This document shows positions 531-58,211 of a stretch of DNA of 64,000 nucleotides, piece after piece. Under the pieces are notes generated by a model, which did no database searches, was not told where the DNA came from, and saw nothing but the letters and a program-made list of their open reading frames with translations. The position numbers and the translations under genes were made by a program. Position 1 is the stretch's first letter. Each line of letters begins with the position of its first letter. The stretch spans positions 50,034,001 to 50,098,000 of the forward strand of contig OZ024742.1 in assembly GCA_964016885.1 (NCBI GenBank), written 5' to 3'. The stretch is from Eledone cirrhosa. Its lineage: Eukaryota.

Positions 531-668
531 ATAACCAGGATCCCAGCAGAGGTCAACATATGGTGGATCCTACGCTGCATCCTGAAGAAGGATGAGGACA
601 CCCTCCTATCTGTAGACAGGAAAGACCGGCATAACTGGTTTGGAACCTGCATCGATGTTCTGGTACAA

Positions 669-1639
669 ATGAGACCAGAGAGAGTTGAGAAAATACCGGA
701 CAGGATCGTCTTTGAGGTAGATGTCATCTCCACTTTAGTGGAGGGGAAAAGACCTCAGTGCCATAAGTGTGGGAAAACCATACACTTAAAGGCCTTTTGC
801 CCTCTCTTAAACAAACCGAGGACAAACAAGGTGTTATTACCAACACCAAAACCCCAACATCAACACTCCAAACCAAACACAACACAAACACCTGCAACAT
901 CCACTCACACACCACCACAGAACAGAGACAACCACACACACAAAATCCCACTGAAAAACCCTCCATTGCCTCTTACCACCCTGTCAAATACTTCCACAAA
1001 CACCTGCACAAACACTCTACCACACAACATACCGCTTCCATCTACCCCTGATTCAGAAGTCACAGACACCGGAGCCTCTACATCTAAAAGTGAGAATGAA
1101 GAGGAACCCCAAAATCCAAAAAACAAAAAAAGACACACAAAAGACACAAAAACATCTACAGAAAACACGCACACACCCAACCACACCATAAACACACCGC
1201 GACAAACGACAAACACACCAACAACACAATCACCAGCAACACAACCAAACACTTCACCAACAAAACAAACACCCACACCACCACAATCACAAACCCCAAC
1301 CACAAAAAGAAAACTACAAACAGAAACATTACACATAAAAAACAAAACACAATACACATACATAAAAACAAAGAACTGGTGGAAACTGTCCAAAGCGACC
1401 CCTCAATACAAACGGAAGGGAAAACCTTCCCCACCAACGACCCACCTCCAAACCTCAAACTTATCAGGGTAACAACCCTACAGTATGAAACTTTAAAAGA
1501 GAACTTCCCACATGATGTGGGCCACCCTTGCCAAAAGCCCCTTAACCGTGTCCTGCTAAAAGAATTACGTCTCTCCCCAAACTCTACCAATCTGGACATG
1601 GAGATCGAACAACCCGACCTCCAAGAAACGAAAAGGTAA
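669..1639 (+). pseudogene. Tx1 ORF1 (gag-like CCHC zinc knuckle), frameshifted near 1380-1470
   Basis: ORF 669-1472 carries CX2CX4HX4C. ORF 1379-1639 resembles the C-terminus of the second Tx1 ORF1 (YE.LKE.F..DVG.P..KP..R.L.K). Confidence 0.75.
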
Positions 1640-1672
1640 GTTTTCATGCCTTTTCTCTCCTTCTTCACCAAC

Positions 1673-4028
1673 ATGTCCTGGAAACAGGGCTAGCTTTTAA
1701 ATGATCTCAGGTCAAATTGTATAGATGTGATAGCCATCACTGAGTCCAGGATTCACGAAAAGCAGCAGCTAACCCCCATATTCGATGATTTCGAGTTCTA
1801 CGCATCTCTCTCTCAGCCAGGAGGTGGAGGGGGAGTTGCTGTTCTGTTTCGAAAAAAACTTGGATCTCAAAATACAGACGATTCACTTGTACTCGGAGGG
1901 CAGCCTGGTGGTCCTGGACGTGAATGTTAGTGAAGGTGGAGCTTTCAGACTGGTGGGCGTATATGCCCCGACTGGGACATCGCGACCAGGGTTCTTCAAG
2001 CATTTCGAGCCATTCCTGGGAACGTCCCGCTCCTTAGTGTGAGCGGAGGACTGGAATGACATCTTAGATGCACGTTGGGACTATGTAGGAGCTTGTGATA
2101 ATAGAGGTGGGTCTAATAGCCTCAAAAATCTCATCAGCCAATTCCAACTGGCTGATAGATATGGACTAGACTTCCTAAGTGCACCACTGTGAACGTGGAG
2201 AAACCGCACTGGGTCTTCTAGATCGTATTTAGATAGATTTTTAATTAGACAGAATGATAAGGAAACATTAAGCTGTCCCGACCAGTCCAAACACGACAAC
2301 CTTCACCTCATGCGATACATCATAGAGAGGGTAGGGTGTAAACCTGGCTTTGGTGGGGGTTCTGATCAATTTAGATCAGTCTAAAGCATTTGATAGGGTG
2401 GACCATCAATACTTGGAAGCAGTTCTCAAGGAGGCCCGCTTCGGTCCCGTCTTCAGAGGCTGGATCGCTGCCATGCACACCAGCATCTGCTCGGCAGTCA
2501 AGGTGAATGGCTACCTATCAGAGCCACTCCAAATCATGCGTTCCATCCACCAGGGAGGCCCTCCCTCCTCCATTCTGTATGTACTGACTCTCGAGCCGTT
2601 ACTGCGGAAATTGGAGCTGTTGCAGGGCATCCCGATCGAACCAGGACTGCGAAAGCAGCGTCAGCCTATGCCGACGACATAACAGTAATGTAGTCGAAAA
2701 CCTCGGAAATCAGCGTAATCGGCAACCTATTACATGAATCCGAAGCGTTGACAGGAGCAAGACTAAACACAAACAAGTCTGTCGATTTGCAACTCGGCAA
2801 CATGGAGAGGCAAACCCATGCCTTCCGACAGTGACGTTGGATGCTGGACGGAAGGATCAGTGAAATTGCTCGGGGTCTGGTTCGATCCAGACCTCCAGGT
2901 GGACAAGAACTGGAACGAGGTCACGGCGAAGGTGTTTGCACTCACCCAGTAGTGGGCTGAGTGCAAACTCTCCTTGAATGGTCGAGCGGAGGTGGCGAAC
3001 AGTTACATAGCGTCCGTAATCTACTACCGCTTGACAGTCGTACCTTACCAAAATGGAACGCCTACTCTTCAAGTTCCTCTGGAAGAAACAGGCTCCATTT
3101 GTGAGGAAATCCATCTGCTGTCAACACCCTTCTAACGGAGGGCTGGGCATGTCGTGGCTGATGATGCGCAAACATGCACTGAGGCTACGCCATCTCCGGG
3201 TATTCCTGACCGGTGAGCCGGTGTGGCTGTCGTTTGTGAGACAAGCTGTTCCACAACTCGTCTCATTAACAGAGCTGCAGTCCTGTGTCAAGCGAAGACC
3301 GAAAATGGGTGCCTGGCACCTCGAGTGCCTAGAGGAGCTCACAGCCCTCTACCAAGCGGAAACGGCAATCAGCGGAGACTCCAATTCGACATTCTATAGG
3401 GGATTAGTGGAGGATAAGTGCTCCGACGTTCTCAGGGAAACTCTAGGCATCGAGGAGGACGAACTGACCTTTTGCTCGGGAGGACTTTCCGTCCAGGGCA
3501 TATGGATAACTTCCAGAGGTCTTTGGCCTGGCAGTGCTACCCAGGAGCTCTACCAGTTCGAGACAAAATCTACATGCACGGACGCCCTGACAGAGATCCT
3601 GCCAAAAGGACCTGTCCAAGATGCGAGCAGGACATCGAAACCGTTCTGCACGCAATTGTTCAGTGCCTAGGAGTGACCGATCTGTGGAATTATGTTGAAC
3701 AGATGGTGTCACGTGTGGGACGCATCCAGTTGTCAGCCGAGTCCATCGTGAGGATCACCCTGCCGCCTTCATTTAAGAACGAAGGAGAGGCGGTTTTCCT
3801 CTGTCTGGTGGCTATGGCGAAAGAGGTAATATGGTGGATGAGGTTAACAGGACTGAGGGCAAACATCTTTCTCTCCGGACAACAACTTATCCCCTTCTTT
3901 AAGTATCACTTCAGAAGGAAGGTGGGAGTGGGGAGAGGTGCTACACCCCAGTAAATTCGCTGAAAGGTGGATGAATGTGGCAAAAATGGCCCGAGTGAAT
4001 GGGCCTACTCTGTATATAAACCTGTAGA
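1673..4028 (+). pseudogene. Tx1 ORF2 (APE endonuclease, RT, Cys-rich domain), with multiple stops, frameshifts and internal deletions
   Basis: Motifs are split over ORFs 1727, 1785, 2350, 3053 and 3418. A large deletion near 2285 removes the EN-RT linker and the first RT motifs. Confidence 0.85.
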
Positions 4029-13467: not shown

Positions 13468-14795
13468 GTTCTTTGAGTCTCAGTCATTGATGTTAGTTAA
13501 CCGGAAAGTTTGTTGAAATGAATATCAAGCCACTACCTGCAGCCTCAGATATTCAGGACGGTCAGGTCTATTGTGTTCCAATTTCTTGTCCGTCTGTATC
13601 CTAAAATCCCACAGCACCTTCACCTGATCGTTTTCTATCACCGACTCTAGCTTATGCTCATACCACTTCTCAGAATGTGGTAAATAGTTTACTTTGCAAA
13701 CGTGCCAGTGGATCACCCTGCCCATCACATCATGTCTCCAGCCCTTATAGTGGGTCTGGGCTAGGTGTTTACACTCGGATACAATGTGAGCCACAGTCTC
13801 CTCTCTCTCTCCACAGATCCTGCACAGTGGGCTAGCCTCCTCCTTGTAAATATGGTGTTTCAACCACTTCGTTTTGCGGGCCTGCTCTTGCGCAGCCATT
13901 AACACTCCTTCTGTAGCCTTTTTAACGTCTCCTCTTTTCAACCAGTTCCATGTCTGTGGATCTCTGAATTCTGTTTTCTCAAAGAAGGTACTATGAAGGG
14001 ATTTTTCCTGACGGCTGCTCTTTCTCCTTGATGTTAGATTTCCTCAGACATAATGCTTGTCAACAGTTTCCACATTACGGACAGACATGTGATAGGTCTA
14101 TAGTTGGTAACATCATTACCCTTGATTCGGTCTTTTATTACCGGAACTGTCAACCAATCTGGTACCTCACCTGACATCAAGCAGTCATTGAAGATGGTTG
14201 TCAATTTCGGGTGGAGGGATGTTATATTTTAAATTCAATACCCCTGCACACCATCTGGGCCTGGTGATTTCCAGTTGGTTAGCTTTTTGGCCTGCCCCTT
14301 AAGAGTTTCAACTGTGATACTCAAATCAGTTTGTTGGTGTGCCTTTTCACTAATCTCCTTCTCTACTGTCTTAATCCACACTGCCTGGTCATTATGTTTA
14401 ACATCCTGTCCCATATTCCTCTCCAGAATGAAATTTCCGTTATCTGGCTGTTGTATTTAGTGTACACAGAGGAGTTATGGGGTAGGTGGTGTATCTAGTT
14501 TGTGGTGTTGGTGAAATTGCTGTTATTTGGCTGTTCTATATAGTGTAGACAGAGGGGGTTTTCTTCCATTTATAACCATTTTCTTTTTTGAATGTAAAAT
14601 GTATAATACAAAATTGAATATTTGAGCGATATAACAATATATTATGGATCCGAATTTTCCTGAGACTTGAGACTGGTGCTTATGCATCATTTGTACTAAG
14701 AATTGTTATTTCACAATTGATTTAAATATGTTAAAAATCAAAATCTTACGGGAGCGATTTCATGACCTTCTTTCCACCATGTGCGTCTTCTTGCC
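13468..14795 (-). mobile_element. Internally deleted, diverged R4/Dong-like element, subfamily A2, retaining both termini
   Basis: Contains 3' UTR, CRICGEREETVAHIVSEC, RT fragments and a 5' leader homologous to 19300-19693. Deletions at about 13560, 14035, 14146 and 14430. Confidence 0.85.
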
Positions 14796-14913: not shown

Positions 14914-17900
14914 TCAGATATTCAGGACGTATCGGAGGGTTCTTGCCGTTCCAAGCAAGCATGCCTTTTGAAGCGTTCCAAAAAGCGTGAAGGGGCCGAT
15001 TTTCTTTAACCATCCCTGGAAACCTTTGGAGATAGTCCCCAGTGCGCCTATGACAATCGGGATCACTTTGACTTCATGGCAGTTCCAAATCCTTTTCACC
15101 TCCCACTTTAGGTCCTGGTATCGGTTAATTTTCTCCCTCTCCTTCTCTTGCACTCTTGTGTCGAACGGGCAGGCCACATCCACAATCAGGCACGATCTTT
15201 TTTCTTTGTCCACAACCACCAGGTCAGGTCTATTGTGTTCCAGTTTTTTGTCCGTCTGTATCCTAAAATCCCACAGCACCTTCACCTGACTGTTCTCCAT
15301 CACCGCCTCTGGCCTATGCTCATACTATTTCTCAGAATGTGGTAGATTGTTTACTTTGCACAGGTGCCAGTGGATCACCCTGCCCATCACATCGTGTCTC
15401 CAGCCCTTATAGTGGGTCTGGGCTAGGTGTTTACACTCGGACACAATGTGAGCCACAGTCTCCTCTCTCTCTCCACAGATCCTGCACAGTGGGCTAGCCT
15501 CCTCCTTGTAGATATGGTGCTTCAACCACTTCGTTTTGAGGGCCTGCTCCTGCGCAGCCATTAGCATTCCTTCGGTAGCCTTTTTGAGGTCTCCTCTTCT
15601 CAACCAGTTCCATGTCTGTGGATCTCTAAATTCAGTTTTCTCAAAGAAGGTACTATGAAGGGATTTTCCCTTAAGGCTGCTCTTCCTCCTTGATGTTATT
15701 TCCTCCTTGGGTATCCCCTGGCCTACTGTCCCCTCCTTCAGTACAGCTCTGAGCATTGGCTCCTTACTATAGGTCACGTATTTGTATAGGTTGTTTTTCT
15801 CCATCTGAACACAGTCCTCTATGCTGATAAGACCTCTTCCACCCTCAGATCTCCTTAGGTAGAGTCTATCGACATCACTCCTCTTGTGGAACATGTTGTA
15901 GATAGTCAATAGCTTCCTAGTCTTCCTATCCATTTCTTTTTGTTCAGCAACATTCCATCTCAGAATTCCCGCACTGTACCTAATAATAGACACACCTCGG
16001 GAATTTACTGCGCTTATGGCATTTCTGCTGTTCAGATGTGACTTCAATACGCTCCTTACTCTCCGAATGTATTCAGTTCTTAACAATTCCTTCATTTTAT
16101 TGTTCTTTATGCCATCAGCCTCCAGAACGCCCAAATACTTGTATCCTTCCTCAGAGTCAATTTCCTTTATCATCTCACCTGTTGGTATCTGGATCCCGTT
16201 ACTTCTGCTCAACCTACCCCTCCTCATCACAATGACTCCACATTTACCAATACCAAACTGCATACATATATCACTGCTGAAAATACGGACAGTGTCAACA
16301 AGCACATCCAACTCCTTCTCACTTTTCCCGAAGAGCTTAAGATCGTCCATGAAGAGGAGGTGATTGATGGTAAGCTCTCCCCTTCCCAACTTGTATCCTG
16401 CTCTCACTTTTCGCAGCATAATGGTCAAGGGCATCAGGGCAAGGACAAACAACAGAGGAGACAGGCTATCTCCCTGGAAGATACCTCTCTTGATCTTCAC
16501 GCTTCCCAAGGATACTCCAGTTGATGTCAACTCTGTCTCCCAGGACCCCATACTCCTGCCCAGCATCTGTCTGATGTTATCTGCCACCCTGAAGATCTCC
16601 AGGCTTTTGGTGATCCAGGAATGAGGCACCATGTCAAATGCCTTTCTGTAGTCTATCCATCCCATGGCAAGATCAGTGTGTCTCCTCCTGCAATTCCCCA
16701 TTACCATCTTATCAATAAGCAACTGGTCCTTTGTACCACGTGACTTCTTTCGGCATCCTTTCTGTTCGTCCGGCAACAAGTTGTTTGTGTGGAGGTGATG
16801 GTAGATTTCCTCAGACACAATGCTCGTCAACAGTTTCCACATTACGGGCAGACATGTGATAGGTCTATAGTTGGTAACATCATTACCCTTGATTCGGTCT
16901 TTCATTATCAGAACTGTGGTACCTTTTGTCAACCACTCTGGCACCTCACCCGACACCAAGCAGTCATTGAACATGGCCGTCAGCTTCGGATGGAGGGATG
17001 TTAAATGTTTAATCCAATACCCCTGCACACCATCTGGGCCTGGTGATTTCCAGTTGGTTAGTTTTTTGGTTTGCCCCTTAAGAGTTTCAACTGTGATACT
17101 CAAATCAGTCTGTTGCTGTGCCTGCTCACCGATCTCCCTCTGTACTGTCTCAATCCACCCTGCCTGGGCATTGTGTCTAACATCCTGCTCCCATATTCCT
17201 CTCCAGAATGTTTTAGCTTGTTCCGCCCCAGGGTTCAAGTCGTTGCCTCTTTCTTTCCCCTCAAGCTGTCCAAACAGCATCTTCTGGTTGTTGTCGAACA
17301 TGCGGTTCTGTTTATACTGACTGACTCTGTTCTCGTATCGCCTGATTTTGGCACTCTTTGCTACAATGCGTTGCTTCAATTCCTCTATGATAATATTTAG
17401 CTTTTTACTCCTAGTTTTGTATTTTATTTCCAGTCTATTTTTAGTGCCTATGTTTTTTAGTGTCCCATTCAGTAGTGACTCAAGCTTTCCTATGTCATTT
17501 CTCATTTCCCCGATTTGCCCACTCAGTCGCTTCTTCCACCACGGCTCTGCTCTTTCTTGTCTGTTGTTTCCTCTCGCTTTTATACCAAGTAGTTTCCTCA
17601 CCGTATTTGCTGTTGCTTTGAGGATATTGTTGCACTGGTGAAGACTCCTCGCCTCAAGGTATGGGATGACTTTGTTTACCTTAGCTGTTGTTTCTTTTAA
17701 CTTTTTCCTGTCTACAAATCTTAGGTTCATAGGTCTCCCACTATCATTGTTCAACTCATCTACCACTAAATTTAGGATGTCAACCGAATCTTGTCCTAGC
17801 CCGTCAGCATTCATCTCCTCAGTGGCCGTATCTCTGTTCCAGGTATTATTTATCTCAGTATTCAGATCATTGCCTGCTTCGGGTGGTTCCTCCGTTCTCA

Positions 17901-18307
17901 GGACCTCCTCACCTTCATTTCCCGCCGGCTCGCTTGTCTGGCATACTACACCCGCCATCTCCAAGCCATTCTCTCTGCTCAGTTCCTCCAGTTCCAGCTC
18001 GCTTATCCACCCATTAGTTCTTATTACCCGAGCCTGCCCGGCCAATTTTTGTTCATCTAATTTAAATAAACCAATCTCGTTCCAGATGTTATGCATCCGT
18101 CTCCTGTAGCCCCCTCTCCTTGGGGTTACTTTTCAGGTAGCATTGCATAACAGTTCTATTCAATTCTTTCGTCCAGTTGGTTCTGGCCCCTTTCCTTCTT
18201 CTTCTTCCTCCAACATCAGCAGTATTTGGTTGACAGTCAGGTTCCTGCTGCTGAGCCAGGGGGCACCTGTTGGGTGAGAGTCTGTCACATGACGTTCTAG
18301 TCTCCAT
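14914..18307 (-). pseudogene. RT-RLE ORF of copy 1, with a +1 frameshift at about 18110 and a TGG>TAG stop at 15325
   Basis: ORFs 18089-18307, 15325-18096 and 14914-15303 join into one protein. Copy 2 has Trp where copy 1 has the stop. Confidence 0.9.
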
Positions 18308-18885
18308 TTCACCGTTATTCGAACTGTTTATGTTCGATATTTAAACACTCTTATCGAGGATTGGCGAATGTATGTTTACATAGCCATCTGTGGATCCGCC
18401 ATCCCACTTGGCCCTTGTGTGGCATTATCACCACGCTGTATACGAACACACATAAACAAACAAACACACGGGCAGAAAGGGCCCCAAAAATGAATAAGCA
18501 TAAGTTTCATTGTAATGTAGTATTCGAATGTCTGACTTAGTTTTTGTTTTTTAAGTTTTACTTTTCCCCCCCTCTTCTCTGTCCGTCCGCTTGCTTCTCT
18601 CTTCATTCTTATTTTCTTTACGTTTTTGGGGTTTCTTTTTTTGTTTTTGTTTTTCTCTGTTTGTTTTTCTCGTTTTTTGCTGTTGTTGCTGTGCTGCTTT
18701 GGTTTTGTTGTTTGTTTTTTCTTTTTTCTTTTGAGTCTATCTATATATTTTGATGCCTTCCTCTTTGTTAGTAGTAGAAATTCTATAATGTGGAAGTGGC
18801 AGCCAGCAGAGACTGGCGGCGTTGGCGATACTGAGACAGTGGTGGTGGTGATGTCGATACCGAGGCAGTGGTGGCGGTGATGCGA

Positions 18886-19527
18886 CCGTAGTACTGTAGT
18901 GATGGTGCTGTAGCGGTGGCAGCAGCAGTGAAGGAGTCAGGGGGTGGTGGCGGCGGTGATGGGATAGTGGTGGTAATGATGGCCGTAGTGAGCGGTGGCG
19001 GTGAAGGTGAAAATGCTGTTGTGTTTAGTGTACACAGATGATGGGGTGGGTGGTGTATCTAGTTTCTGGTGTTGGTGAGTTTAGCTGTCCTATATAGTGT
19101 AGCCAGAGGAGAGGAGGGGGGGTTCTTCTTCTTCCATTTATAGCCATTTTATTTTTTTTTGGATATACAGTGTACAATACAAAGTTGAATATTTGAATAT
19201 TTGAGCCGTATTACTGTAGTGATGGTGCTGTAGCGGTGGCAGCAGCAGTGAAGGAGTCAAGGGGTGGTGGCGGCGGTGATGGGATAGTGGTGGTAATGAT
19301 GGCCGTAGTGAGCGGTGGCGGTGAAGGTGAAAATGCTGTTGTGTTTAGTGTACACAGATGATGGGGTGGGTGGTGTATCAAGTTTCTGGTGTTGGTGAGT
19401 TTAGCTGTCCTATATAGTGTAGCCAGAGGAGAGGAGGGGGGGGGGGGTTCTTCTTCTTCCATTTATAGCCATTTTTTTTTGGATATACAGTGTACAATAC
19501 AAAGTTGAATATTTGAATATTTGAGCC
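18886..19527. repeat. About 320-bp tandem duplication in the 5' leader of copy 1 only
   Basis: CCGTA(G/T)TACTGTAGTGATGG... occurs at about 18885 and 19206. Copy 2 has a single unit (23814-24135). Confidence 0.9.
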
Positions 19528-19693
19528 TTATAACAATATATTTTGGGTCCGAATTTTTTGGGGGCTCAAGCCGGGTGCTTTACGTAGCATTTGTACTAAG
19601 AGTTGTTATTTCACAAATGATTTAAATATGTTAAAAATTCAAAACTTACGGGAGCGATTTCATGACCTCCGTCACCTCGTGCGTCTTCTTCCC

Positions 19694-19729
<36 letters not shown>

Positions 19730-19756
19730 GTTATTATTATTATTATTATTATTATT

Positions 19757-22700
19757 GTTATTGTTATTCCTTGAATCTCAGTCATTGATGTTGGTTAACT
19801 GGAAAGTCCGTTGGATTGAATATCAAGCCACTACCTGCAGCCTCAGATATTCAGGACGTATCGGAGGGTTCTTGCTGTTCCAAGCAAGCATGCCTTTTGA
19901 AGCGTTCCAAAAAGCGTGAAGGGGCCGATTTTCTTTAACCATCCCTGGAAACCTTTGGAGATAGTCCCCAGTGCGCCTATGACAATCGGGATCACTTTGA
20001 CTTCATGGCAGTTCCAAATCCTTTTCACCTCCCACTTTAGGTCCTGGTATCGGTTAATTTTCTCCCTCTCCTTCTCTTGCACTCTCGTGTCGAACGGGCA
20101 GGCCACATCCACAATCAGGCACGATCTTTTTTCTTTGTCCACAACCACCAGGTCAGGTCTATTGTGTTCCAGTTTTTTGTCCGTCTGTATCCTAAAATCC
20201 CACAGCACCTTCACCTGACTGTTCTCCATCACCGCCTCTGGCCTATGCTCATACCATTTCTCAGAATGTGGTAGATTGTTTACTTTGCACAGGTGCCAGT
20301 GGATCACCCTGCCCATCACATCGTGTCTCCAGCCCTTATAGTGGGTCTGGGCTAGGTGTTTACACTCGGACACAATGTGAGCCACAGTCTCCTCTCTCTC
20401 TCCACAGATCCTGCACAGTGGGCTAGCCTCCTCCTTGTAGATATGGTGCTTCAACCACTTCGTTTTGAGGGCCTGCTCCTGCGCAGCCATTAGCATTCCT
20501 TCTGTAGCCTTTTTGAGGTCTCCTCTTCTCAACCAGTTCCATGTCTGTGGATCTCTAAATTCAGTTTTCTCAAAGAAGGTACTATGAAGGGATTTTCCCT
20601 TAAGGCTGCTCTTCCTCCTTGATGTTATTTCCTCCTTGGATATCCCCTGGCCTACTGTCCCCTCCTTCAGTACAGCTCTGAGCATTGGCTCCTTACTATA
20701 GGTCACGTATTTGTATAGGTTGTTTTTCTCCATCTGAACACAGTCCTCTATGCTGATAAGACCTCTTCCACCCTCAGATCTCCTTAGGTAGAGTCTATCG
20801 ACATCACTCCTCTTGTGGAACATGTTGTAGATAGTCAATATCTTCCTAGTCTTCCTATCCATTTCTTTTTGTTCAGCAACATTCCATCTCAGAATTCCCG
20901 CACTGTACCTAATAATAGACACAGCTCGGGAATTTACTGCGCTTATAGCATTTCTGCTGTTCAGATGTGACTTCAATACGCTCCTTACTCTCCGAATGTA
21001 TTCAGTTTTAACAATTCCTTCATTTATTTGTTCTTTATGCCATCAGCCTCCAGAACGCCCAAATACTTGTATCCTTCCTCAGAGTCAATTTCCTTTATCA
21101 TCTCACCTGTTGGTATCTGGATCCCGTTACTTCTGCTCAACCTACCCCTCTTCATCACAATGACTCCACATTTACCAATACCAAACTGCATACATATATC
21201 ACTGCTGAAAATACGGACAGTGTCAACAAGCACATCCAACTCATTCTCACTTTTCCCGAAGAGCTTAAGATCGTCCATGAAGAGGAGGTGATTGATGGTA
21301 AGCTCTCCCCTTCCTAACTTGTATCCTGCTCTCACTTTTCGCAGCATAATGGTCAAGGGCATCAGGGCAAGGACAAACAACAGAGGGGACAGGCTATCTC
21401 CCTGGAAGATACCTCTCTTGATCTTCACGCTTCCCAAGGATACTCCAGTTGATGTCAACTCTGTCTCCCAGGACCCCATACTCCTGTCCAGCAACTGTCT
21501 GATGTTATCTGCCACCCTGAAGATCTCCAGGCTTTTGGTGATCCAGGAATGAGGCACCATGTCAAATGCCTTTCTGTAGTCTATCCATCCCATGGCAAGA
21601 TCAGTGTGTCTCCTCCTGCAATTCCCCATTACCATCTTATCAATAAGCAACTGGTCCTTTGTACCACGTGACTTCTTTCGGCATCCTTTCTGTTCGTCCG
21701 GCAACAAGTTGTTTGTGTGGAGGTGATGGTAGATTTCCTCAGACACAATGCTCGTCAACAGTTTCCACATTACGGGCAGACATGTGATAGGTCTATAGTT
21801 GGTAACATCATTACCCTTGATTCGGTCTTTCATTATCAGAACTGTGGTACCTTTTGTCAACCACTCTGGCACCTCACCCGACACCAAGCAGTCATTGAAC
21901 ATGGCCGTCAGCTTCGGATGGAGGGATGTTAAATGTTTAATCCAATACCCCTGCACACCATCTGGGCCTGGTGATTTCCAGTTGGTTAGTTTTTTGGTTT
22001 GCCCCTTAAGAGTTTCAACTGTGATACTCAAATCAGTCTGTTGCTGTGCCTGCTCACCGATCTCCCTCTGTACTGTCTCAATCCACCCTGCCTGGGCATT
22101 GTGTCTAACATCCTGCTCCCATATTCCTCTCCAGAATGTTTTAGCTTGTTCCGCCCCAGGGATCAAGTCGTTGCCTCTTTCTTTCCCCTCAAGCTGTCCA
22201 AACAGCATCTTCTGGTTGTTGTCGAACATGCGGTTCTGTTTATACTGACTGACTCTGTTCTCGTATCGCCTGATTTTGGCACTCTTTGCTACAATGCGTT
22301 GCTTCAATTCCTCTATGATAATATTTAGCTTTTTACTCCTAGTTTTGTATTTTATTTCCAGTCTATTTTTAGTGCCTATGTTTTTTAGTGTCCCATTCAG
22401 TAGTGACTCAAGCTTTCCTATGTCATTTCTCATTTCCCCGATTTGCCCACTCAGTCGCTTCTTCCACCACGGCTCTGCTCTTTCTTGTCTGTTGTTTCCT
22501 CTCGCTTTTATACCAAGTAGTTTCCTCACCGTATTTGCTGTTGCTTTGAGGATATTGTTGCACTGGTGAAGACTCCTCGCCTCAAGGTATGGGATGACTT
22601 TGTTTACCTTAGCTGTTGTTTCTTTTAACTTTTTCCTGTCTACAAATCTTAGGTTCATAGGTCTCCCACTATCATTGTTCAACTCATCTACCACTAAATT

Positions 22701-24301
22701 TAGGATGTCAACCGAATCTTGTCCTAGCCCGTCAGCATTCATCTCCTCAGTGGCCGTATCTCTGTTCCAGGTATTATTTATCTCAGTATTCAGATCATTG
22801 CCTGCTTCGGGTGGTTCCTCCGTTCTCAGGACCTCCTCACCTTCATTTCCCGCCGGCTCGCTTGTCTGGCATACTACACCCGCCATCTCCAAGCCATTCT
22901 CTCTGCTCAGTTCCTCCAGTTCCAGCTCGCTTATCCACCCATTAGTTCTTATTACCCGAGCCTGCCCGGCCAATTTTTGTTCATCTAATTTAAATAAACC
23001 AATCTCGTTCCAGATGTTATGCATCCGTCTCCTGTAGCCCCCTCTCCTTGGGGTTACTTTTCAGGTAGCATTGCATAACAGTTCTATTCAATTCTTTCGT
23101 CCAGTTGGTTCTGGCCCCTTTCCTTCTTCTTCTTCCTCCAACATCAGCAGTATTTGGTTGACAGTCAGGTTCCTGCTGCTGAGCCAGGGGGCACCTGTTG
23201 GGTGAGAGTCTGTCACATGACGTTCTAGTCTCCATTTCACCGTTATTCGAACTGTTTATGTTCGATATTTAAACACTCTTATCGAGGATTGGCGAATGTA
23301 TGTTTACATAGCCATCTGTGGATCCGCCATCCCACTTGGCCCTTGTGTGGCATTATCACCACGCTGTATACGAACACACATAAACAAACAAACACACGGG
23401 CAGAAAGGGCCCCAAAAATGAATAAGCATAAGTTTCATTGTAATGTAGTATTCGAATGTCTGACTTAGTTTTTGTTTTTTAAGTTTTACTTTCCCCCCCC
23501 TCTTCTCTGTCCGTCCGCTTGCTTCTCTCTTCATTCTTATTTTCTTTACGTTTTTGGGGTTTCTTTTTTTGTTTTTGTTTTTCTCTGTTTGTTTTTCTCG
23601 TTTTTTGCTGTTGTTGCTGTGCTGCTTTGGTTTTGTTGTTTGTTTTTTCTTTTTTCTTTTGAGTCTATCTATATATTTTGATGCCTTCCTCTTTGTTAGT
23701 AGTAGAAATTCTATAATGTGGAAGTGGCAGCCAGCAGAGACTGGCGGCGTTGGCGATACTGAGACAGTGGTGGTGGTGATGTCGATACCGAGGCAGTGGT
23801 GGCGGTGATGCGACCGTATTACTGTAGTGATGGTGCTGTAGCGGTGGCAGCAGCAGTGAAGGAGTCAAGGGGTGGTGGCGGCGGTGATGGGATAGTGGTG
23901 GTAATGATGGCCGTAGTGAGCGGTGGCGGTGAAGGTGAAAATGCTGTTGTGTTTAGTGTACACAGATGATGGGGTGGGTGGTGTATCTAGTTTCTGGTGT
24001 TGGTGAGTTTAGCTGTCCTATATAGTGTAGCCAGAGGAGAGGAGAGGGGGGGGGTTCTTCTTCTTCCATTTATAGCCATTTTTTTTTTTGGATATACAGT
24101 GTACAATACAAAGTTGAATATTTGAATATTTGAGCCTTATAACAATATATTTTGGGTCCGAATTTTTGGGGGCTCAAGCCGGGTGCTTTACGTAGCATTT
24201 GTACTAAGAGTTGTTATTTCACAAATGATTTAAATATGTTAAAAATTCAAAACTTACGGGAGCGATTTCATGACCTCCGTCACCTCGTGCGTCTTCTTCC
24301 C
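19757..24301 (-). mobile_element. Full-length R4/Dong-like RLE element, family A1, copy 2 (tandem with copy 1)
   Basis: Nearly identical to copy 1 along its whole length, separated from it by (TTA)n at 19694-19756. Confidence 0.95.
19843..23235 (-). pseudogene. RT-RLE ORF of copy 2, with the shared +1 frameshift at about 23040 and a private lesion at about 21005-21030
   Basis: ORFs 23017-23235, 21024-23024 and 19843-20976. CAGTTTTAAC here versus CAGTTCTTAAC in copy 1. Confidence 0.9.
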
Positions 24302-45756: not shown

Positions 45757-45757
<1 letters not shown>

Positions 45758-47159
45758 GAGTAAGAGCAATCTTAAGAACGGAATTGAATGCAAGGAATAG
45801 GATCGATGCCTTAAACACGCTTGCCATACCAGTAGTAACCTACAGTTACAATGTCATCAACTGGTCAAGCACAGAGATCCGTAGGCTCGATACAAAAATT
45901 CGAAAATTCTTAACCATGCACAGAATGCATCATCCTAAGGCAGATATAGATAGAATATATCTCCCTAGGAAAGAAGGAGGACGTGGGTTAATCCAGTTAG
46001 ACATTGCGTTGAAAACTGCAACAATTGGATTATCTACATATCTAAGGGAATCACATGATTGGATGATCAAACTCGTTTTGAAACACGAAAGCATCAAAAG
46101 ATCATATTCCATTACAAAAGATGCACAAAGATACAGTAATGGACTACAAATTTCAGAAGTCCCATTTACTGCTGAAATGGAAAACACAGAAAAAGCAAAG
46201 CAGGTAAAAGTAACTGCAAAGAAAGAACTGCTACAGATACTGGCTAAGAAATGGCAAGAAAAGCCTCTGTATGGAAAATACCCAGAGCGAGCTAACAATC
46301 CTGATGTTGACAAAACTTTAACCCATCAGTGGTTGGCATCCTCTGGACTGAAATCGGAGACTGAAGGACTGATTATATCAGCACAAGATCAGTGTCTGCC
46401 AACAAAAAATTACCAAGCCAACATAATAAAAAATGGATGCAGCCTATTATGCCGTGTATGCAAAAAACAACCAGAGACCATTGACCATATAATTTCAATG
46501 TGCAGTCCTATAGCTCCAACCGAATACCTAAACAGGCATGACAGAGCTGCACAATACATACATTGGATAATGTGTAAACATTTTGACCTACCCCATCAAA
46601 AGAATTGGTGGGAGCATCAACCACCTCCCATACTTGAAAAAGATCACATCTCAATCTTGTGGAACTTTAGCATCCAAACAAACCGAAAAATAGATGCAAA
46701 TATACCTGATATAATATTGAAGGACTTTCAAAAGAGGGTATGCCTGCTAATTGATATGTCTGTCCCAATAGACAAGAATGTATCTATAAAAACATTTGAA
46801 AAATTGAGCAAGTATAAGGACCTGGAGATAGAAATTGGAAAAATGTGGAAATTGAGAACTAAAACAATACCAGTGGTTGTAGGCGCTCTGGGAATGATAC
46901 CTAAGGGGTCTAATGATTACTTATCGCAAGTCCCAGGAAACCCGCGTATAGGAGAAATACAAAAGATAGTACTAATGGGAACTGCCCATATACTAAGGAA
47001 GATTCTGTCAATATAAGTACATCACAAGTCTAAACACTAAAGATGCATGTGTGAGTATGTATGTTCTTTCTTGAACATGGCGGACCTTGTTGTCTCTTGA
47101 GGTCACTGGTTGTGACTTGGTGATAACTCGTATGAACATAAAGCAAGATAAATGCAACT

Positions 47160-47160
<1 letters not shown>
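45757..47160 (+). mobile_element. 5'-truncated R4/Dong-like RLE element, family B (open frame to 47016)
   Basis: RIYLPRKEGGRGL, CRVCKKQPETIDHIISMC, RHD, PDII...LIDMSVP...EKLSKY. The poly-Ile N-terminus in the ORF track is just the (ATA)n tract. Confidence 0.9.
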
Positions 47161-47194
<34 letters not shown>

Positions 47195-47202
47195 TATTAT
47201 TA

Positions 47203-49637
47203 TGCATCGACTAAAGTCACCACTCACTTATGTGGAGTGAAGATGAAAAAACAAAGGAGTTCCCACAAGAAATCTACTTGGCAAGAGAACATCAATCGCC
47301 AAATAAACCTTCTCCGATCTGACATAGAAATTTTAACAAACTATAAAGTAGGTGAGCATGTTAAACAATCTAAACTTAGAAAATTGAAAAGAAAGTACAG
47401 TATAAAATCAACAAGTGACATAGACATGCTGATAGAAATAATCAAGCAAAAAGTGTCGGCCAAAGCTGCTCGTATAAGGCGCTTTGATAAACGATCTACA
47501 TTCTATAAGGACAATAATATGTTCAAAAACAACCAAAGAAATTTCTACAGAAAAATTGGTAAGTCAACAATAACTGCTAAATCAATACCACCCAAGGGTC
47601 ATAATAGACACAAAAATCTATCAATTGCTTGGATAGATTATAAAAAAGCATTCGATACTTTGCCACACAGTTGGATTGAAAAATGTTTAGTGATTTTCAA
47701 AATATCCCCCATTGTCAGGAGGTTTTTGTCATTCAGTATGAAGACATGGAAAACTCACACTCCTTTTGGATAGTGAAACAAAATCACTGGAAGCTGGAGA
47801 AGTTAATATTAATTGTGAAATTTTTCAGGGTGACTCTTTATCACCGCTTTTATTCTGCATCGATCTTATACCATTAAGTAAAATACTCAATGAAACAAAA
47901 CATGGATATAAAGTCTATGACAAAACCATTAATCACTTGTTCTACATGGATAATCTGAAACTATTTGCAAAAAATGATGAACAATTGCAAGGGCTATTAT
48001 CCACTGTGGAGCAGTTCATTGATGACGTTAAACTGGAGTTTGGACTAGATAAATGCGCCAAAGCAACGTTCACCAGAGGAAAGCTGCTGAAGAGTTCAGA
48101 CATTAATCTTGATCGGGGGAACGTGATAAGAGAACTTGATCAAGAAAAACCTTACAAATATCTAGGTGTTTGTGAAGGAGACAGAATCAAGCACTCGACA
48201 ATGAGGGAAAGGATAAGGAAGGAATGTTACCGCAGAGTAAGAGCAATCTTAAGAACGGAATTGAATGCAAGGAATAGGATCGATGCCATAATCACGCTTG
48301 CCATACCAGTAGTAACCTACAGTTACAATGTCATCAAGTGGTCAAGCACAGAGATCCGTAGGCTCGATACAAAAATTCGAAAATTCTTAACCATGCACAG
48401 AATGCCTCACCCTAAGGCAGATATATATATAATATATCTCCCTAGAAAAGAAGGAGGACGTGGGTTAGTCGAGTTAGACGTTGCGTTGAAAACTGCAACA
48501 ATTGGATTATCTATTTATCTAAGGGAATCACATAATTGGATGATCAAACTCGTTTTGAGACACGAAAGCATCAAAAGATCATATTCCATTACAAAAGATG
48601 CACAAAGATACAGTAATGGACTACAAATTTCAGAAGTCCCATTTACTGCTGAAATGGAAAACACAGAAAAAGCAAAGCAGGTAAAAGTAACTGCAAAGAA
48701 AGAACTGCTACAGAAACTGGCTAAGAAATGGCAAGAAAAGCCTCTGTATGGAAAATACCCAGAACGAGCTAACAATCCTGATGTTGACAAAACTTCAACC
48801 CATCAGTGGTTGGCATCCTCTGGACTGAAATCGGAGACTGAAGGACTGATTATGTCAGCACAAGATCAGTGTCTGCCAACAAAAAATTACCAAGCCAACA
48901 TAATAAAAAATGAATGCAGCCCATTATGCCGTGTATGCAAAAAACAACCAGAGACCATTGACCATATAATTTCAATGTGCAGTCCTATAGCTCCAACCGA
49001 ATACCTAAACAGGCATGACAGAGCTGCACGATACATACATTGGATAATGTGTAAGCATTTTGACCTGCTCCATCAAAAGAATTGGTTGGAGCATCAACCA
49101 CCTCCCATACTTGAAAAAGATCACATCTCAATCTTGTGGAACTTTAGCATCCAAACAGACCGAAAAATAGATGCAAATAGACCTGATATAATATTGAAGG
49201 ACTTTAAAAAGAGGGTATGCCTGCTAATTGATATGTCCGTTCCAATAGACAATAATGTATCTATAAAAACATTTGAAAAGTTGAGCAAGTATAAGGACCT
49301 GGAGATAGAAATTGGAAAAATGTGGAAATTGAGAACTAAAACAATACCAGTGGTTGTAGGCGCTCTGGGAATGATACCTAAGGTGTCTAATGATTACTTA
49401 TTGTAAATCCCAGGAAACCCGCGTATAGGAGAAATACAAAAGATAGTACTAATGGGAACTGCCCATATACTAAGGAAGATTCTGTCAATATAAGTACATC
49501 ACAAGTCTAAACACTAAAGATGCATGTGTGAGTATGTATGTTCTTTCTTGAACATGGCGGACCTTGTTGTCTCTTGAGGTCACTGGATGTGACTTGGTGA
49601 TAACTCGTATGAACATAAAGCAAGATAAATGCAACTG
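47203..49637 (+). mobile_element. Family B RLE element with internal deletion, frameshift and RT DD>DN
   Basis: KVSAKAARIRRF; deletion at about 47595; WIDYKKAFD; FQGDSLSPLLF; FYMDNL; premature stop at 49404. Confidence 0.9.
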
Positions 49638-49665
49638 TAATAATAATAATAATAATAATAATAAT

Positions 49666-52574: not shown

Positions 52575-52849
52575 AAATAATAATAATAATGATTTGATTT
52601 ATTGGCCACAAGGGCCGACATATAGGGGACAATACAAAAGACTGGGACAGAGGAGGTTTACATATACAACTATTAAACAAAAACAATATAAATAACAATA
52701 ACAAAGTAACAATAAAAATAGAAGAAGAAAAATTCCCTATAGGTGGGATGACCAACCAGGGTTCACCTAGGTACCCCACCAATCCTGAACCACCCGATAT
52801 TTCGAGAGCAACCGGGAAGAGCACCCTTCTCCTCCTCAAATTTACCCAC

Positions 52850-55803
52850 CTACAGGTGCATAATCAGAGTAGGCCCACTCACACGGGCCATTCTCGTCAC
52901 ATTCACCTACCTTTCAGCAAGTGTACTGGGGAGGGGGGGGGGGCAGCACTTCTCTCTGCATCATCACTTTCCTTTCCAAGTGAAACTTGTAAAACTTGAT
53001 GAGGGATTCGCCGAAGAGAAACGTGTCTTTATTCTTTCCAACCTAGTCCACCGTACAACCTCTTTCGCTAGTGCCACCAGACAGAGGAAAAATTGCCTGC
53101 CATTCCTGGCCAAAAGAAGGCGGCAAGTCGATCTTCACTATGATTCCACATGATTCCACAAGTCAGTAATGGACGGACAACGGACGAGTGCGTGCGGAAC
53201 GGTTTCGTCGCTCTGCCCGCATCTCGGGCAGGTCCGACTGATAGCACTTCCGTGCCTGTAGAATTTATCTCGAACTGCCAGCGCCCCCAGTAGCACTGCT
53301 AAGAAAGGGATTTTTGGAAATGATCTATCACCCCGGCTCGAATGTCGTCCGGAACAGACTGGTTTGTTCGACTTCGTCGACCCCCAGAGCCTCTTCGAGT
53401 ACGTCTTCGCACTTGCCCACCACTTATCCTCTATAGAACTCAAGAGTGGAAGTTCCACTGACCGCATTGCCCGCCTGGTAGAGGGCAGTGTGTGCCTGGC
53501 AACATTCCAGATGCCAGTCACCCAGTCTCGGTCTCTTCTTGACCCAGGACTGCAGCTCAGTTAATGAGACGAGCTGTGGAAAGGCCTGTCTAACAAACGG
53601 TAAGCACACCTATTCACCGTTTAGGCAGAATATCGAGAGATGCCGCACCCTCAGCGCGTCTCTGCGTATCATTAGCCACGGCATGCCCAGCACTCCACGT
53701 AGAGGGTGCTGGCAGCAGATGGACGGCCTCATCATCGGAACCTGACCCTTCCACAATAATTTGAAGAGTAGCTGTTCCAAGTTGGCAAGGCGCGAACGGG
53801 GTCAAGGGACGACGGTCAGGCGGTAGTAGATGACGGACGCGATGTACGCGTTCGTCACCTCCGCCCGACATTTCAGTGATAGCTTCCTCACAGCCCATTT
53901 CTGGGCGAGACTGGCTCTCCTGCCCGTCACCTCGTCCCAATTATTATCCACCTGGAGGTCTGTTCCGAACCAAACCCCGAGCAACTTTACCGGTCCGTCC
54001 GTCCAGCGCCCAACGGCGCTGTTGGACGGCATGGACATGCCTCTTCAGGTGCCGAGTAGGAAGCCCACTTACTTTTCCGGGTTAAGTTTTTCTCCCGTCA
54101 ACCGTTCATATTCCTCCAATAAGTTGCCGACCACCTCGATTTCTGAGGTGTCCGACACAATCACGGTGATGTCGTCCGCATAAGCCGTCACAGCCTTTCT
54201 GCGTCCCGGTTTGAGGGGGATGCCCTGTAACAGCTCCAGCTTCCGCAGTAAAGGCTCGAGAGTCAATACGTACAGAAGTGGGAGAGAAGGCACCCTTGAT
54301 GGACCGATCAGGAGATCTGAAACGGTTCCGAGAGGTGGCCATTAACTTTGATCACCGAGCAAATTCCACTGTGCATTGCAGCGATCCAGCTTCTGTAGAC
54401 GGGGCCGAAGTCAGCCGCCTTGAGGACAGCCTCCACATACCGAAGGTCGACCCTAACGAATGCTTTAGATTGATCTAAATTGATCAGAGACCCACCGAAG
54501 ACAGATTTACACCCTACCCTCTCTATGATGTATCGCATCAGGTGGAATTTGTCGTGTATGGACCTGGTTGGGATTGCGCAAGTTTGCGCCTCCCCAACCA
54601 AATCCTCGACGACAAACGCCAAACCCTTCGCTAACACATTTTGGCCCAAATCTTAAACTCTGTGTTGAGCAGAGTTATGGGCCTGAAATTGTCTAATGTG
54701 TCCCTCTTTTTCTCGTCTTTCCTTATCAGCGTCCTACGCCCCGGCTCACAGAACTGGGAATACTCCCGTTTTGCTTCCAGTTGCAGTAGAGCGCTTCGAG
54801 GAGATAGGAGAACAAGTCTGCTCGTAGGGCAGACCATCAAACCAGGTGACTTGCACCTCATGCAGCCGACAAGGGCATCCTGAATCTCGGCTGAAGTAAT
54901 CGGCCTTTCGCAGCGCTCAGCGTCGGCCGTCGAGATTTGCAGCAAGACATCGAGGTAGAGACTGAAGTCCGCCACGATCTGTGACCCGCCAATTCCTCGG
55001 GAACAACCGAGCAAAATGTTGGCGAAAGGCCTCAAACATCCGCTTGGAATCGCTCAGCTCGTGTCCGTCTCGCTTTGTCAAAGACCGAATCGTGGTTTTA
55101 TTACCACGCTGCGCCTCTGCCTCGTGGGCCCACCGAACAGCTTTGGTTCCCTCGTTTCTCAGAGCACGCGCCTTAGCTCTGACAATGCAACCTTCGTCCT
55201 TCGTATTTCGCATTGAAGAAATAGTCTAATGCCACTCTTGCTGCTAGCACGTCAGTTGCAATGCCACTACCAGCACCCCCTCCTTTCTATTTTTCTCTAA
55301 CGCTACTTCTTTGTTAAAATATATAGACATTACTCTAATATCTCTTTTGAGAGCCCCCATCTTCTATTGTTGACGGCTCCCCCTCTGAACCTTTTATTAA
55401 CTTACTTGTTGACCCGGTCCCTGTAAGCCTTACCTGCCGGAAAGGAAATGTTCAGCTTCCAGTTACCAGGTCCTAACCTACGCGTCTTATCTAGGTCGAC
55501 CACACAGATTACAAAGTTGTTATCTGAATAGGCGACCGTTTTAAATCGTGGACAGCTTACACTATTTCTGTCTATTTTTCTAAACAGCCCTGCCACCCCA
55601 CCTCTCATTCCCGGCCGACTAACAGATGTGAATATCTGATAGTCGTCGAAATTGGGGGCTAGTGCGCGCGTGTCAGAAAACCTGGTGTCGCTGACGGCAA
55701 TTACATCCATTTCTAGAGACCTGAGGTTGTAGAGTAGGTGACTCTGCTTCCAGGATGATCCCAGGCCTCGAACATTTAAACTTCATACTCTTAATACGAC
55801 CAT
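52850..55803 (-). pseudogene. Tx1 ORF2 remnant (APE, RT, Cys-rich domain)
   Basis: Fragments in ORFs 55402, 54917, 54631, 54308, 54069, 53802, 53424 and 53138. Confidence 0.85.
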
Positions 55804-55832
55804 GTTGGCAGGCTAATAAAGAGAGGAAAGGT

Positions 55833-57259
55833 TTACTTACCTTCTGGGCACTTGTGAAGGTCAGGTGGTTCGACCACCATTGTTGGTGGGGTTTCTTTTG
55901 GGAACCCCTTTAAAAGTCTTGAAGTGGGTTTTACGTTCGGGGTTCCCACGTCCCGAGAAAAGCTGTCTCGTATCTCATTGTATAAATTGAGCGACATTCG
56001 CAACAGAAACAAATCGTCCGGCACGCGAAATGTGCTCGATTAAAAAAATTTCCCCCTCTTTTTGTATTTCTTCACTTCGTGTTATGAGGGCCATCAGTTC
56101 CTTGTTGGCCCTCTTGACGAGCACGAAGTTTTGTATGTTTTATTGGTGTAATTTTATTTGTTTGCGTGGCTATGGTGGTGATGGTTTTTATGTTGTTTCG
56201 GTTGTGTCTGTGTTTGTTGTGAGTGCGGTGTCTGTGGTTTCAGATGTTTGTGTGTATATTTGTTCGTGCGTCTGTTTAGATTGTTTGCTTTTGGGGGATT
56301 CTGGTGGTGGTGATGGTATTGGTGGTGTTGATGTTGGTGTTGTTGGGGAGATGTTTGCGTGGGTGGTGTCTGCATTTTCTATTGTGGGTGTTTTTGTGCT
56401 TTGTTGAGTTTTTGTTTTCTTTTCGTGTTTCCTTTTTTGTATTTTGGGGGATTTTGGTTTTCCCCCATCTTCACTACTGGTAGATGAGGGGTCTGTGTCT
56501 GTGTGTGTGTGTGTTTATGATTTTATTGATGTGTTCATTGTTTGGGGGGTGAGTAATTTAACAACTTTCCTCGTTTCCACCCTGAGTGGTCAATGTTGGT
56601 GGTGCTCTTTCTATTGGTGTAGTTGCTGGTGGTTTTGCCGGGGCCGGTGTTGGTTGTGGTCATCGTCCTGGCGTCGGCAGCAGTGGAGCCCTTCGACTCC
56701 TTGCATCTTTTAGCAGTTAAGGGCAGAAGGCTCGCAAATGGGTTTTTCTCCCACAAACGAAACAATGCAGCCTTTTGCCCCCAGTCATAATGTATATTAA
56801 CGTCCCGTTCCGAAGACAGATGTGGTCCGGGATTGTTTTGATATTCTCCGGATTGATCTGAAGAAGTATCTCCAGGTCAACCGCGGAACACTCCTCTCTG
56901 ACAGTTCTTGTTACTTCTATCGGAATGGTATCCGTCCCCTCCACAATCACACATCCCAGAAGCCACCACATTTCATGTCCTGGTGACATTCTGGGAATGC
57001 GGAGACGGGCCGTTCTTTTTCCTATGTGGGAGGGGTACATTGTGACCTTGCTGGTTTTGCAAGGTGTCGTAACATGTTTCATAGCAAGGGCTTCTGACTT
57101 CAACGGCACCGAAATGGTGCCATATTGTCTGCCCCTCGCTGTGTATTTGGCGTCATCCCTGATGCACCTCAGTGTGACTTCGACATCTGTTTGTGGAATT
57201 AAAGCTGCCCTCTTGGTTTCTGCTGAGATGCATCTGTAATGCACTGTTCTGCGCTCCAT
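55833..57259 (-). pseudogene. Tx1 ORF1 remnant with CCHC zinc knuckle
   Basis: ORF 56717-57259 and C-terminal ORF 55833-56024 are homologous to ORF1 of the first Tx1. Confidence 0.75.
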
Positions 57260-58211
57260 TGCTTCAATATCTTCTACCGGGACAGTTAAGTTGGCCCAGG
57301 TTTGCTCTTGCTTGATGAGCTTCCAGGCCTGGCCAACTTTTCATCTTTGTTCGAGAGGTCCATGGTGAGGCATGGCCTCTTTTTGGCTGCTGCCGCAGCG
57401 AAAATGTTCTTCTTGCTGTCGTTGGTGGTGTTGTTGTTGTTATCGTTGTTCTTGTTGGTGTTGTTACTGTTATCACTGTTGCAGTTGATTATATCTTTGG
57501 TGCCGCCGTTGTTGTTGTTTTCCGTGCAGATGGTATTGTTGCTGTTGGTGCTGTTGCTGTTTATGTTCTGGTTATTGGTGTTAATTTCGTTGTTGTTTTC
57601 GTTGATATTGTTGCTGCTGCTATTGTTGTAATTGTTGTTGTTGCTGTTGTTGTGGTTGTCACTGTTGTTGATATTGTTGACTTTGTTGTCGTTCTTTCTG
57701 TTGTTGGTGTTGTCATTATTGCAGTTGTGGTTGATTTTTCTGTCATTGTTGTTGGTTTTGTTATTGTTCTTGTTCAGGACAGTATTTTTAAAACTGTTTT
57801 TGGTAATATCGCTGTTGCTGCTGTTGTCATTTTTGTTTATATTAATGTTCTCACTGCTGTTCGTGCTGGTGTTGGGGATATTGCCTGATGTGTTGTTACA
57901 TTTTAAAATTGTAATTTATTAGCCTCAAAGTTTGAATCGCTGTCGCAAGACAGCAAACCGAAATTCGGGTGGCGTGGCTCCGCTATGTTTTTTTTTTTCA
58001 TAAAAACTTTCTTTTTTACACACAAAGTTTAAATATTTGGGCCAAAAGGCCCAAATATTACGGGGTACTTTCTTGGGAGCAAAGACTAAAGTCTTATTTC
58101 CCGTTTGAAAAAAAATATTAATGAAAAACGTATTTCACACCGTAGATTAAACAAACTTACGAGCTCACGATAGTACGTCCATTTGCTTCAACGACCAATA
58201 ATAATAATAAT

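Follow-up and report, generated by a model that had tools for sequence, protein, structure and literature searches.

Elements with an apurinic-type endonuclease (APE) and those with a restriction-like endonuclease (RLE) mark the deepest split among non-LTR retrotransposons, and the origin of new LINE promoters is often unknown. In the prevailing view, R2/R4-type RLE elements rely on being co-transcribed and then released by a ribozyme, and to our knowledge no promoter is known for the RLE clade that appears below as recipient of a foreign 5′ sequence.

Several related systems have been described. In mammalian L1, 5′ UTRs have been repeatedly recruited and swapped, and families carrying the same UTR are not monophyletic (PMC3600994). 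An upstream promoter can rescue a 5′-compromised L1 and travel along with it, as reported for RAP1GDS1-L1PA2 (bioRxiv 10.1101/2025.02.02.635956), and the SpIREs of human L1 are rare integrated copies that lack an intron within the 5′ UTR (PMC5860796). Dong of Bombyx mori possesses an active, self-cleaving HDV-like ribozyme at its 5′ end (PMC3774820); it is placed in the R4 lineage in that report and classed under APE-type elements in another (PMC3812793). Kibi and Koshi are APE-type LINEs of the Tx1 group that reside in simple repeats, TC or TTC (PMC3812793). Both Dong-R4 and L1-Tx1 elements are reported to be abundant and recently active in octopus, and the available parts of the two reports mention no leader of the kind described below (PMC13282606, PMC8967140). 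A literature search, judged by listings and abstracts and with Repbase and most subscription journals outside its scope, brought up no RLE element whose UTR derives from Tx1/L1.

The window, which is the whole stretch of 64,000 nucleotides analysed here from a 3.0-Gb animal genome, contains nested non-LTR retrotransposons sitting in (TAA)n runs (Table 1). A preliminary description of it had proposed that an R4/Dong-like element carries a 5′ leader of Tx1/L1 type. From sequence comparison, we conclude that two RLE families, A and F, carry a 5′ segment of ~180 nt that was probably captured from Tx1, a putative and likely internal Pol II promoter that a few copies have lost, likely by splicing.

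The focal element shows Dong/R4-type features

The focal element belongs to subfamily A1 of family A. A frameshift (near 18132) and a stop (near 15325) interrupt its open reading frame (ORF); in intact copies the frame is open over 1141 codons, and 38 among the best 40 genome matches to a homologue have no internal stop. Pfam detects RVT_1 and a weak zf-RVT in this ORF, and no APE. The motifs read in the intact ORF are CRICG...HIVSEC, RHD, RPDLVV... and VDVACP..EKINRY, and the C-terminus holds a CCHC knuckle and a nuclease motif of PD..D(E)xK type. The ATG in the leader of RLE heads opens a frame of only 18-27 codons (20 codons at 19472 in the focal copy), so no ORF1 is seen in family A. With a single RT ORF, no APE and no ORF1, the R4/Dong-type single-ORF RLE layout given in the preliminary description stands.

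Family A inserts in TAA repeats, the same target as Dong (PMC3812793). Among solved structures, R2 proteins come closest to the homologue P0001 (E=2e-29, against 3e-15 for L1). No named Dong/R4 member occurs among the homologues; the label "Dong/R4-type" is taken from ORF layout, motifs and target. A search for further Dong families with P0045 returned family A alone. The two copies of a distant RLE family in Table 1 are tentatively assigned to family F by likeness, as F also shows 36-38% to P0001. Elsewhere in the window (38691-39230), a frame of 179 codons matches Ulp1 protease only weakly (E=0.004, a sub-threshold value).

Table 1. Features of the window discussed in the text
Feature	Position	Strand	Remark
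Focal family A (A1) element	19693 to ~14840	minus	
First 44 nt of family A (A1 head)	19650..19693	minus	common to A1/A2/A3/F
Head, almost certainly Tx1-homologous	19470..19649	minus	GTAAGT (19649) ... GGCTCAAATATT ... A-run
Tandem duplication in A1 leader, 320 nt	18886..19531	minus	copy number varies among A1 copies
Non-coding spacer	18400..19469	minus	C/A-rich, A-rich, T-rich
Likely remnant of ancestral Dong 5′ UTR (3′ ~55 nt)	18343..18395	minus	boundaries approximate
Family A ORF	14915..18340	minus	single RT + CCHC + PD..D(E)xK-type; end approximate
(TAA)n run upstream of focal element, also tail of next A1 copy	19695..19768	minus	
Second A1 copy, head	24070..24301	minus	donor motif at 24257
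A2-type head on family A copy with internal deletion	14447..14795	minus	
Distant RLE family, two 5′-truncated copies	45757..49665	plus	36-38% to P0001
Tx1-type element (family T), 5′ UTR	57984..58196	minus	GTAAGT at 58160, AATATTTGGGCC..GGCCCAAATATT palindrome
Tx1-type element, decayed body	52590..57983	minus	Asn-rich ORF1 start, CCHC knuckle, APE-RT ORF2

The leader of family A contains a head almost certainly homologous to Tx1

The preliminary description had listed four blocks common to the A1 leader and the 5′ UTR of the Tx1-type element. All four occur at the places it gave, in A1 as the donor motif (19649), TGTGAAATA (19615), GGCTCAAATATT (19527) and AACTTTGTATTGTA (19506), and in Tx1 at 58160, 58139, 58043 and 58029. 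Two of the forms it quoted do not hold as shared blocks: TGTGAAATA is present in one of 30 T copies, 29 carrying TTTGAAATA, and lies out of register, a coincidence peculiar to the T copy of the window; the exact form AACTTTGT.(T)GTA is likewise found in one of 30. Ordered shared blocks had been described within the first ~250 nt. Colinearity with the Tx1 5′ UTR extends over ~180 nt of this (19649-19470), but not over the first ~44 nt, which are not alignable to Tx1 and correspond to the first exon of the F copies described below as likely spliced.

For single copies from the window, significance depended on the scoring. Under the blastn-like scheme, 147-222 of 1000 shuffles scored at least as high, as opposed to 0-2 of 1000 under 5/-4. 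Majority sequences of the families, derived from 29 A1, 30 A2 and 30 Tx1 loci (L017 was left out for an anchor mismatch), align almost gap-free from GTAAGT to the A-run/ATGG. Against dinucleotide-shuffled controls, the comparison suggested in the preliminary description, this alignment is significant under three 5/-4 schemes (0/2000 shuffles reach the score; Gumbel P ~2e-7 to 2e-4) and still not significant under 2/-3 scoring.

The A1 and T heads are identical in 108 of 183 columns. The clearest Tx1 match comes from A3, a third subfamily of family A (L127; 20 loci), whose head agrees with that of T in 117 of 188 columns (62%, 3 gaps; blastn E=7.6e-12); this equals the likeness between Tx1 families (T-D 134/215, T-C 124/195). 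The match survives shuffling within 20-nt local composition (0/500), and after removal of both end landmarks z is still 7 for A1-T and 16 for A3-T. A profile built from RLE heads only detects 30/30 T heads at E<0.01 and 0/30 reversed decoys, and its sole non-RLE match in the window is at 58109-57993 (E=1.8e-5). With a Tx1-only profile, the A3 head is found at E=7e-10 in 757 kb and the A1 and A2 heads only at 0.004-0.9; no significant pairwise alignment was obtained between A1, A2 or F heads and the Tx1 families C, E and B.

These results indicate that the RLE head is almost certainly homologous to the Tx1 5′ UTR. Convergence or chance likeness between AT-rich sequences that combine a promoter with a donor site would fit the failure of single copies under blastn-like scoring and the one coincidental block, and is largely refuted by the length and near-absence of gaps in the A3-T alignment, its interior z, the empty shuffles and decoys, and by Tx1 family B, which has the same layout and scores at background. 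We regard it as extremely improbable.

Downstream of the head, the preliminary description had both leaders continue into C/A-rich sequence, in Tx1 the Thr-rich N-terminus of ORF1. The likeness in composition is real, but no protein match to any Tx1 ORF1 was found (tblastx empty), and the T frame is Asn-rich rather than Thr-rich (47-50 N per 100 residues in 7/7 scorable copies). The spacer resembles Tx1 ORF1 regions in composition only. We also considered the leader as a decayed Tx1 ORF1 and rejected this, as tblastx was empty and nucleotide z values against block shuffles, mostly 1-4, were taken to reflect composition. An acceptor-like TACAG at 18440 is used in no copy found, and a long intron reaching 18440 gave 0 genome hits.

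The head type is old in Tx1

The Tx1-type element (58196-52590) is a LINE of APE-RT type with two ORFs, and the ORF1 start codon of this T copy is mutated to ATA. The only named match obtained for the Tx1-type group is the zebrafish "transposon TX1 149 kDa protein" (26%). For ORF2 of a sister family (L123), the best PDB match is L1 ORF2p (E=1e-47); Pfam reports Exo_endo_phos, RVT_1 and zf-RVT in L123 and APE in the T copy L136. The name "Tx1-type" follows target specificity, which fits Tx1, and not a tree with named Tx1/L1 references.

As to whether Tx1 families carry this leader type, an issue raised in the preliminary description, seven families (T, C, D, E, G, H and B) have it directly before the ORF1 start. 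The common order is a short variable start, a GTAAG-like motif, an AT-rich stretch, a GGCC-type hairpin, an A-run and ATG; exceptions are C, where the motif is altered (no GT), B, which belongs by layout only, and D, whose one copy is without ATG. This ATG opens 111-583 codons in the better-kept copies (C, E, H) and 8-36 in six decayed ones. The ORF2s of the seven families differ widely (53-74% in pairwise projections, values lowered by decay), and their tree, a quick one from decayed copies, served for rough distances only. The position of the head straight before ORF1 in families with such different ORF2s implies that it is old in Tx1.

Several other features of the Tx1 families were noticed. 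Family B (L091-L120; window 528-4027) sits in (ATCT)n or (TC)n, not ATT, and its head has the same layout without a detectable sequence match. At L129, a head and ORF1 of family E are joined to an ORF2 95% identical to that of family C, so 5′ parts may be exchanged among Tx1 families as well. The palindrome GGGCC-TTTT-GGCCC of the Tx1 head (58054-58032) is similar to a motif of the Tx1 3′ end, GGCCCTTGTGGCC (52618-52581), with a profile match of E=0.005 in the window. A common SINE-like repeat of ~190 nt with an ATT tail often lies just upstream of T heads (window 58209-58274), and its 3′ end is included in the F leader (L141:4150-4060, minus).

The head moves with the element and is swapped between RLE lineages

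That the leader moves with the element, as previously proposed, was confirmed. All 30 loci found by the A1 head continue into family A, and the family A N-terminus or ORF follows in 29/29 A1, 25/30 A2 and 17/20 A3 loci; the remaining A2 loci lead into the N-terminus of F (1), into internal pieces (2) or into nothing (2). Among 30 copies with an intact ORF, chosen by the ORF alone, 17 begin at leader base 1-2. The leader does not, however, always precede the RLE ORF in full, since 13/30 are truncated inside it, mostly at a TAA run. Rearranged or foreign sequence follows where the leader match ends in L245, L253 and L257. By an exact-pattern count, 1,812 heads have an intact donor.

Family F (L141) shares only 38% protein identity with A over 1052 aligned residues, and in the protein tree F lies far from A, which groups with the outside proteins P0001-P0003. 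Nevertheless, the head is present on 21/30 F loci (four of these form a single tandem array); 18 of the heads are A2-type and 3 A1-type, and A2 and F heads agree in 205 of 226 positions. In A2 itself, an additional front of 710 nt is stacked onto what is otherwise an A3 leader. These findings indicate that heads have been exchanged between RLE lineages.

RLE heads are often preceded by (GAA)n runs and repeated GGGAAGAA pieces (L042, L141, L311, L318, L365), which suggests slippage on the first bases of the element during 5′ joining.

The leader was very likely added to Dong from Tx1

Relatives of family A outside this genome are distant (23-63% best-segment identity, with the DNA of the closest proteins, P0001-P0003, outside the set). 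In 84 Dong-like loci of other organisms (264 kb), the head profiles reached E=0.23 at best, and the head is thus lacking there. A TAA run precedes the protein match by 99-685 nt at 17 of the 31 outside loci examined at the 5′ end, and we built an outgroup-UTR profile from eight such UTRs. It matches F at 986-1097, just before the ORF (model 109-219, E=1.7e-17), and with model 217-270 it matches A3 (E=3.5e-5) and A2 (E=3.4e-4), also just before the ORF. A1 gives no direct match; its likely remnant (Table 1) was placed by alignment to A3 and A2. A and F thus keep different remnants of a shorter ancestral-type UTR whose front is lost, which argues that the leader, 0.9-1.45 kb of sequence in these families, was added.

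Taken together, the leader was very likely added to Dong, and most likely from Tx1, the direction being Tx1 to Dong. Capture from Tx1 is supported as the best reading of the head, with only ~180 nt demonstrably Tx1-like. The acquisition from Tx1 put forward in the preliminary description is therefore upheld, but the donor need not be the T family of the window: D and G score as well as T against RLE heads, and in the head tree the RLE heads form a clade (93) whose attachment among Tx1 heads is supported by 26-50. This tree, which names no donor, would also suit a third source that served both clades, such as a host first exon with its intron or an unsampled element, or a transfer from Dong to Tx1. 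We consider these origins very unlikely, given that the head is old in Tx1, standing straight before ORF1 in seven families, and is vestigial in Dong and absent from the 84 outside loci. Moreover, when APE elements of other clades were searched (30 loci, with upstream extensions for 16), the head of Tx1 family H was the only match.

The H match comes from an APE LINE (L237:1970-2220, L242, L274-L290) in which the family H head, inverted and joined to part of the H ORF1 start, stands immediately before the ORF of the LINE; the junction is present in ~14/24 loci. The same LINE has a PHD-like finger as well as GDVELNP, a 2A-like motif, and we presume it to be Ingi/I-like. Judged by its sequence, the junction represents another case in which a different clade captured Tx1 5′ sequence.

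Ribozymes were sought as well. The segment TCCTCGAT ahead of the A ORF was considered as a degenerate HDV-like ribozyme and rejected, as P3 fails and the segment aligns instead to the ORF-proximal end of the outgroup UTRs. No Rfam or descriptor match to a ribozyme was obtained in A or F, with a descriptor that is insensitive (a candidate in 1/34 outgroup 5′ ends); an Rfam search of 8 loci from this genome and 17 from outgroups gave sub-threshold matches only, nearly all to simple repeats. In outside Dong-like elements, two types of conserved 5′ motif stand right after TAA (L391-L405 and L429; L387/L388/L398/L428). Neither has an Rfam match, and both are probably structured, candidate ribozymes.

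Intron-like deletions point to transcription through the head

Forty heads with a non-G after the first exon were all read, of which 35 show point or one-base changes; in the other five, a long stretch that begins with the donor G is missing. Two of these, L313 and L318, join exactly at the base after AG, five bases before ATG, and so have lost, GT to AG, the equivalent of 19470..19649; that AG is absent from most A1 copies, the focal one among them. Both are full-length F copies with 3′ end and TAA tail on different contigs; they are 92% alike and may share a single origin. In the tandem pair L311/L312 the junction lies five bases earlier, and in L365 ~870 bases later; in neither case does the reference show an AG there.

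The non-G search selects for deletions at the donor G. A looser pattern that allows other start points gave 43 hits, compared with 18 for a reversed control; 30 of the 43 were read, and only the four short-deletion copies named above were heads, the other 13 hits being without the exon end. No spliced Tx1 copy was found among 43 donor-mutant copies read or in pattern searches (0 hits). The GT..AG loss in rare F copies likely occurred by splicing, and the exact GT-AG deletions suggest that Pol II transcribes the head in the sense direction.

There is reason to regard the head as a putative internal Pol II promoter, a role that we hold to be probable from where the head stands in Tx1, the 5′ end that full-length copies have in common, the repeated re-acquisition and the rarity of intron-less copies. 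The captured head might instead be a passenger, with transcription by host read-through and the 5′ end set by processing, in keeping with the reliance of known Dong on a ribozyme (PMC3774820) and with the first 44 nt being unlike Tx1. Such a passenger would hardly be expected to show one common 5′ end in full-length copies or to be kept and re-acquired by two lineages, and intron-less copies number at most 5 against 1,812, as with the promoter-less SpIREs of L1 (PMC5860796). This possibility appears quite improbable to us.

Proposed route of capture

The preliminary description had Tx1 and the RLE family target the same microsatellite. The repeat is indeed the same, but the two face opposite strands: AAT lies upstream of 27/29 A1, 29/30 A2 and 16/20 A3 heads, and ATT upstream of 29/30 T heads. 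We propose that a 5′-truncated Dong, with most of its own UTR lost, landed in sense behind a Tx1 head, for example at the AAT/AAC-rich start of Tx1 ORF1. Because the two kinds lie opposite in the repeat, the site would have been a sense AAT/AAC run within the Tx1 5′ region, and short runs of this kind are present there. In 1.55 Mb examined, Dong behind a Tx1 5′ part was found in no sense and two antisense cases.

In target-primed reverse transcription (TPRT), the Dong-type protein needs only the RNA 3′ end. It could then have copied a read-through chimeric RNA, and the Tx1 ORF1 start would have decayed to the short upstream frame. Same-direction nesting of Dong copies would later allow heads to be re-acquired and swapped, as in the A2 front on the A3 leader and the F heads. 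Unspliced RNA would found new families, while spliced copies would lose the promoter and stay rare.

The main alternative to insertion and read-through is that the same capture took place by template switching or RNA-level joining of Dong and Tx1 RNAs. Strand switching has been proposed for UTR recruitment in L1 (PMC3600994), and the opposite orientation of the two kinds in the repeat, together with the lack of a sense-nested case, would be easily accommodated. On the other hand, the leaders are mosaics with genomic-type pieces (the end of the ~190-nt repeat in F; A2 on A3), as adjacency in DNA predicts, and both the sense AAT/AAC runs in Tx1 5′ regions and the same-direction nesting in a leader (L311) argue for insertion. 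We judge template switching unlikely.

More tentatively, and with less than even confidence, the Tx1 head may be a portable Pol II promoter-with-intron cassette that passes between LINE clades. It would have replaced ribozyme release in two Dong lineages, where it is still being swapped, and have been taken separately, inverted, by the Ingi/I-like LINE; self-driven transcription may have let Dong reach thousands of young copies.

Comparison with known systems

The donor type can be named here and lies across the APE/RLE split. If true, an RLE family with a borrowed promoter would be a natural test of whether transcription limits RLE spread, and the system lends itself to direct testing, with ~1,800 heads of several generations and intron-less copies that occur naturally.

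Families A and F resemble Dong of Bombyx mori and the R4 lineage in the TAA target, the single RT ORF and the C-terminal CCHC plus nuclease-type motif. B. mori Dong starts with a ribozyme, whereas A and F start with an added leader of 0.9-1.45 kb (PMC3774820). Tx1 targets also differ, being ATT and ATCT here and not those of Kibi and Koshi (PMC3812793). The exact GT-AG deletions of L313 and L318 are like those of SpIREs, but affect an RLE element and a probably captured segment (PMC5860796). In RAP1GDS1-L1PA2, a host gene promoter accompanies four insertions; here the head of another retrotransposon is found in ~1,800 copies (bioRxiv 10.1101/2025.02.02.635956). As in mammalian L1, the heads of A and F appear to have been recruited and swapped (PMC3600994). 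The UTRs of mammalian L1 came from older L1 families or unknown sources, whereas the likely source here is of APE type and the recipient of RLE type (PMC3600994). UTR recruitment is thus a known process that is met here in a new setting, with donor and recipient on either side of the divide between APE and RLE clades.
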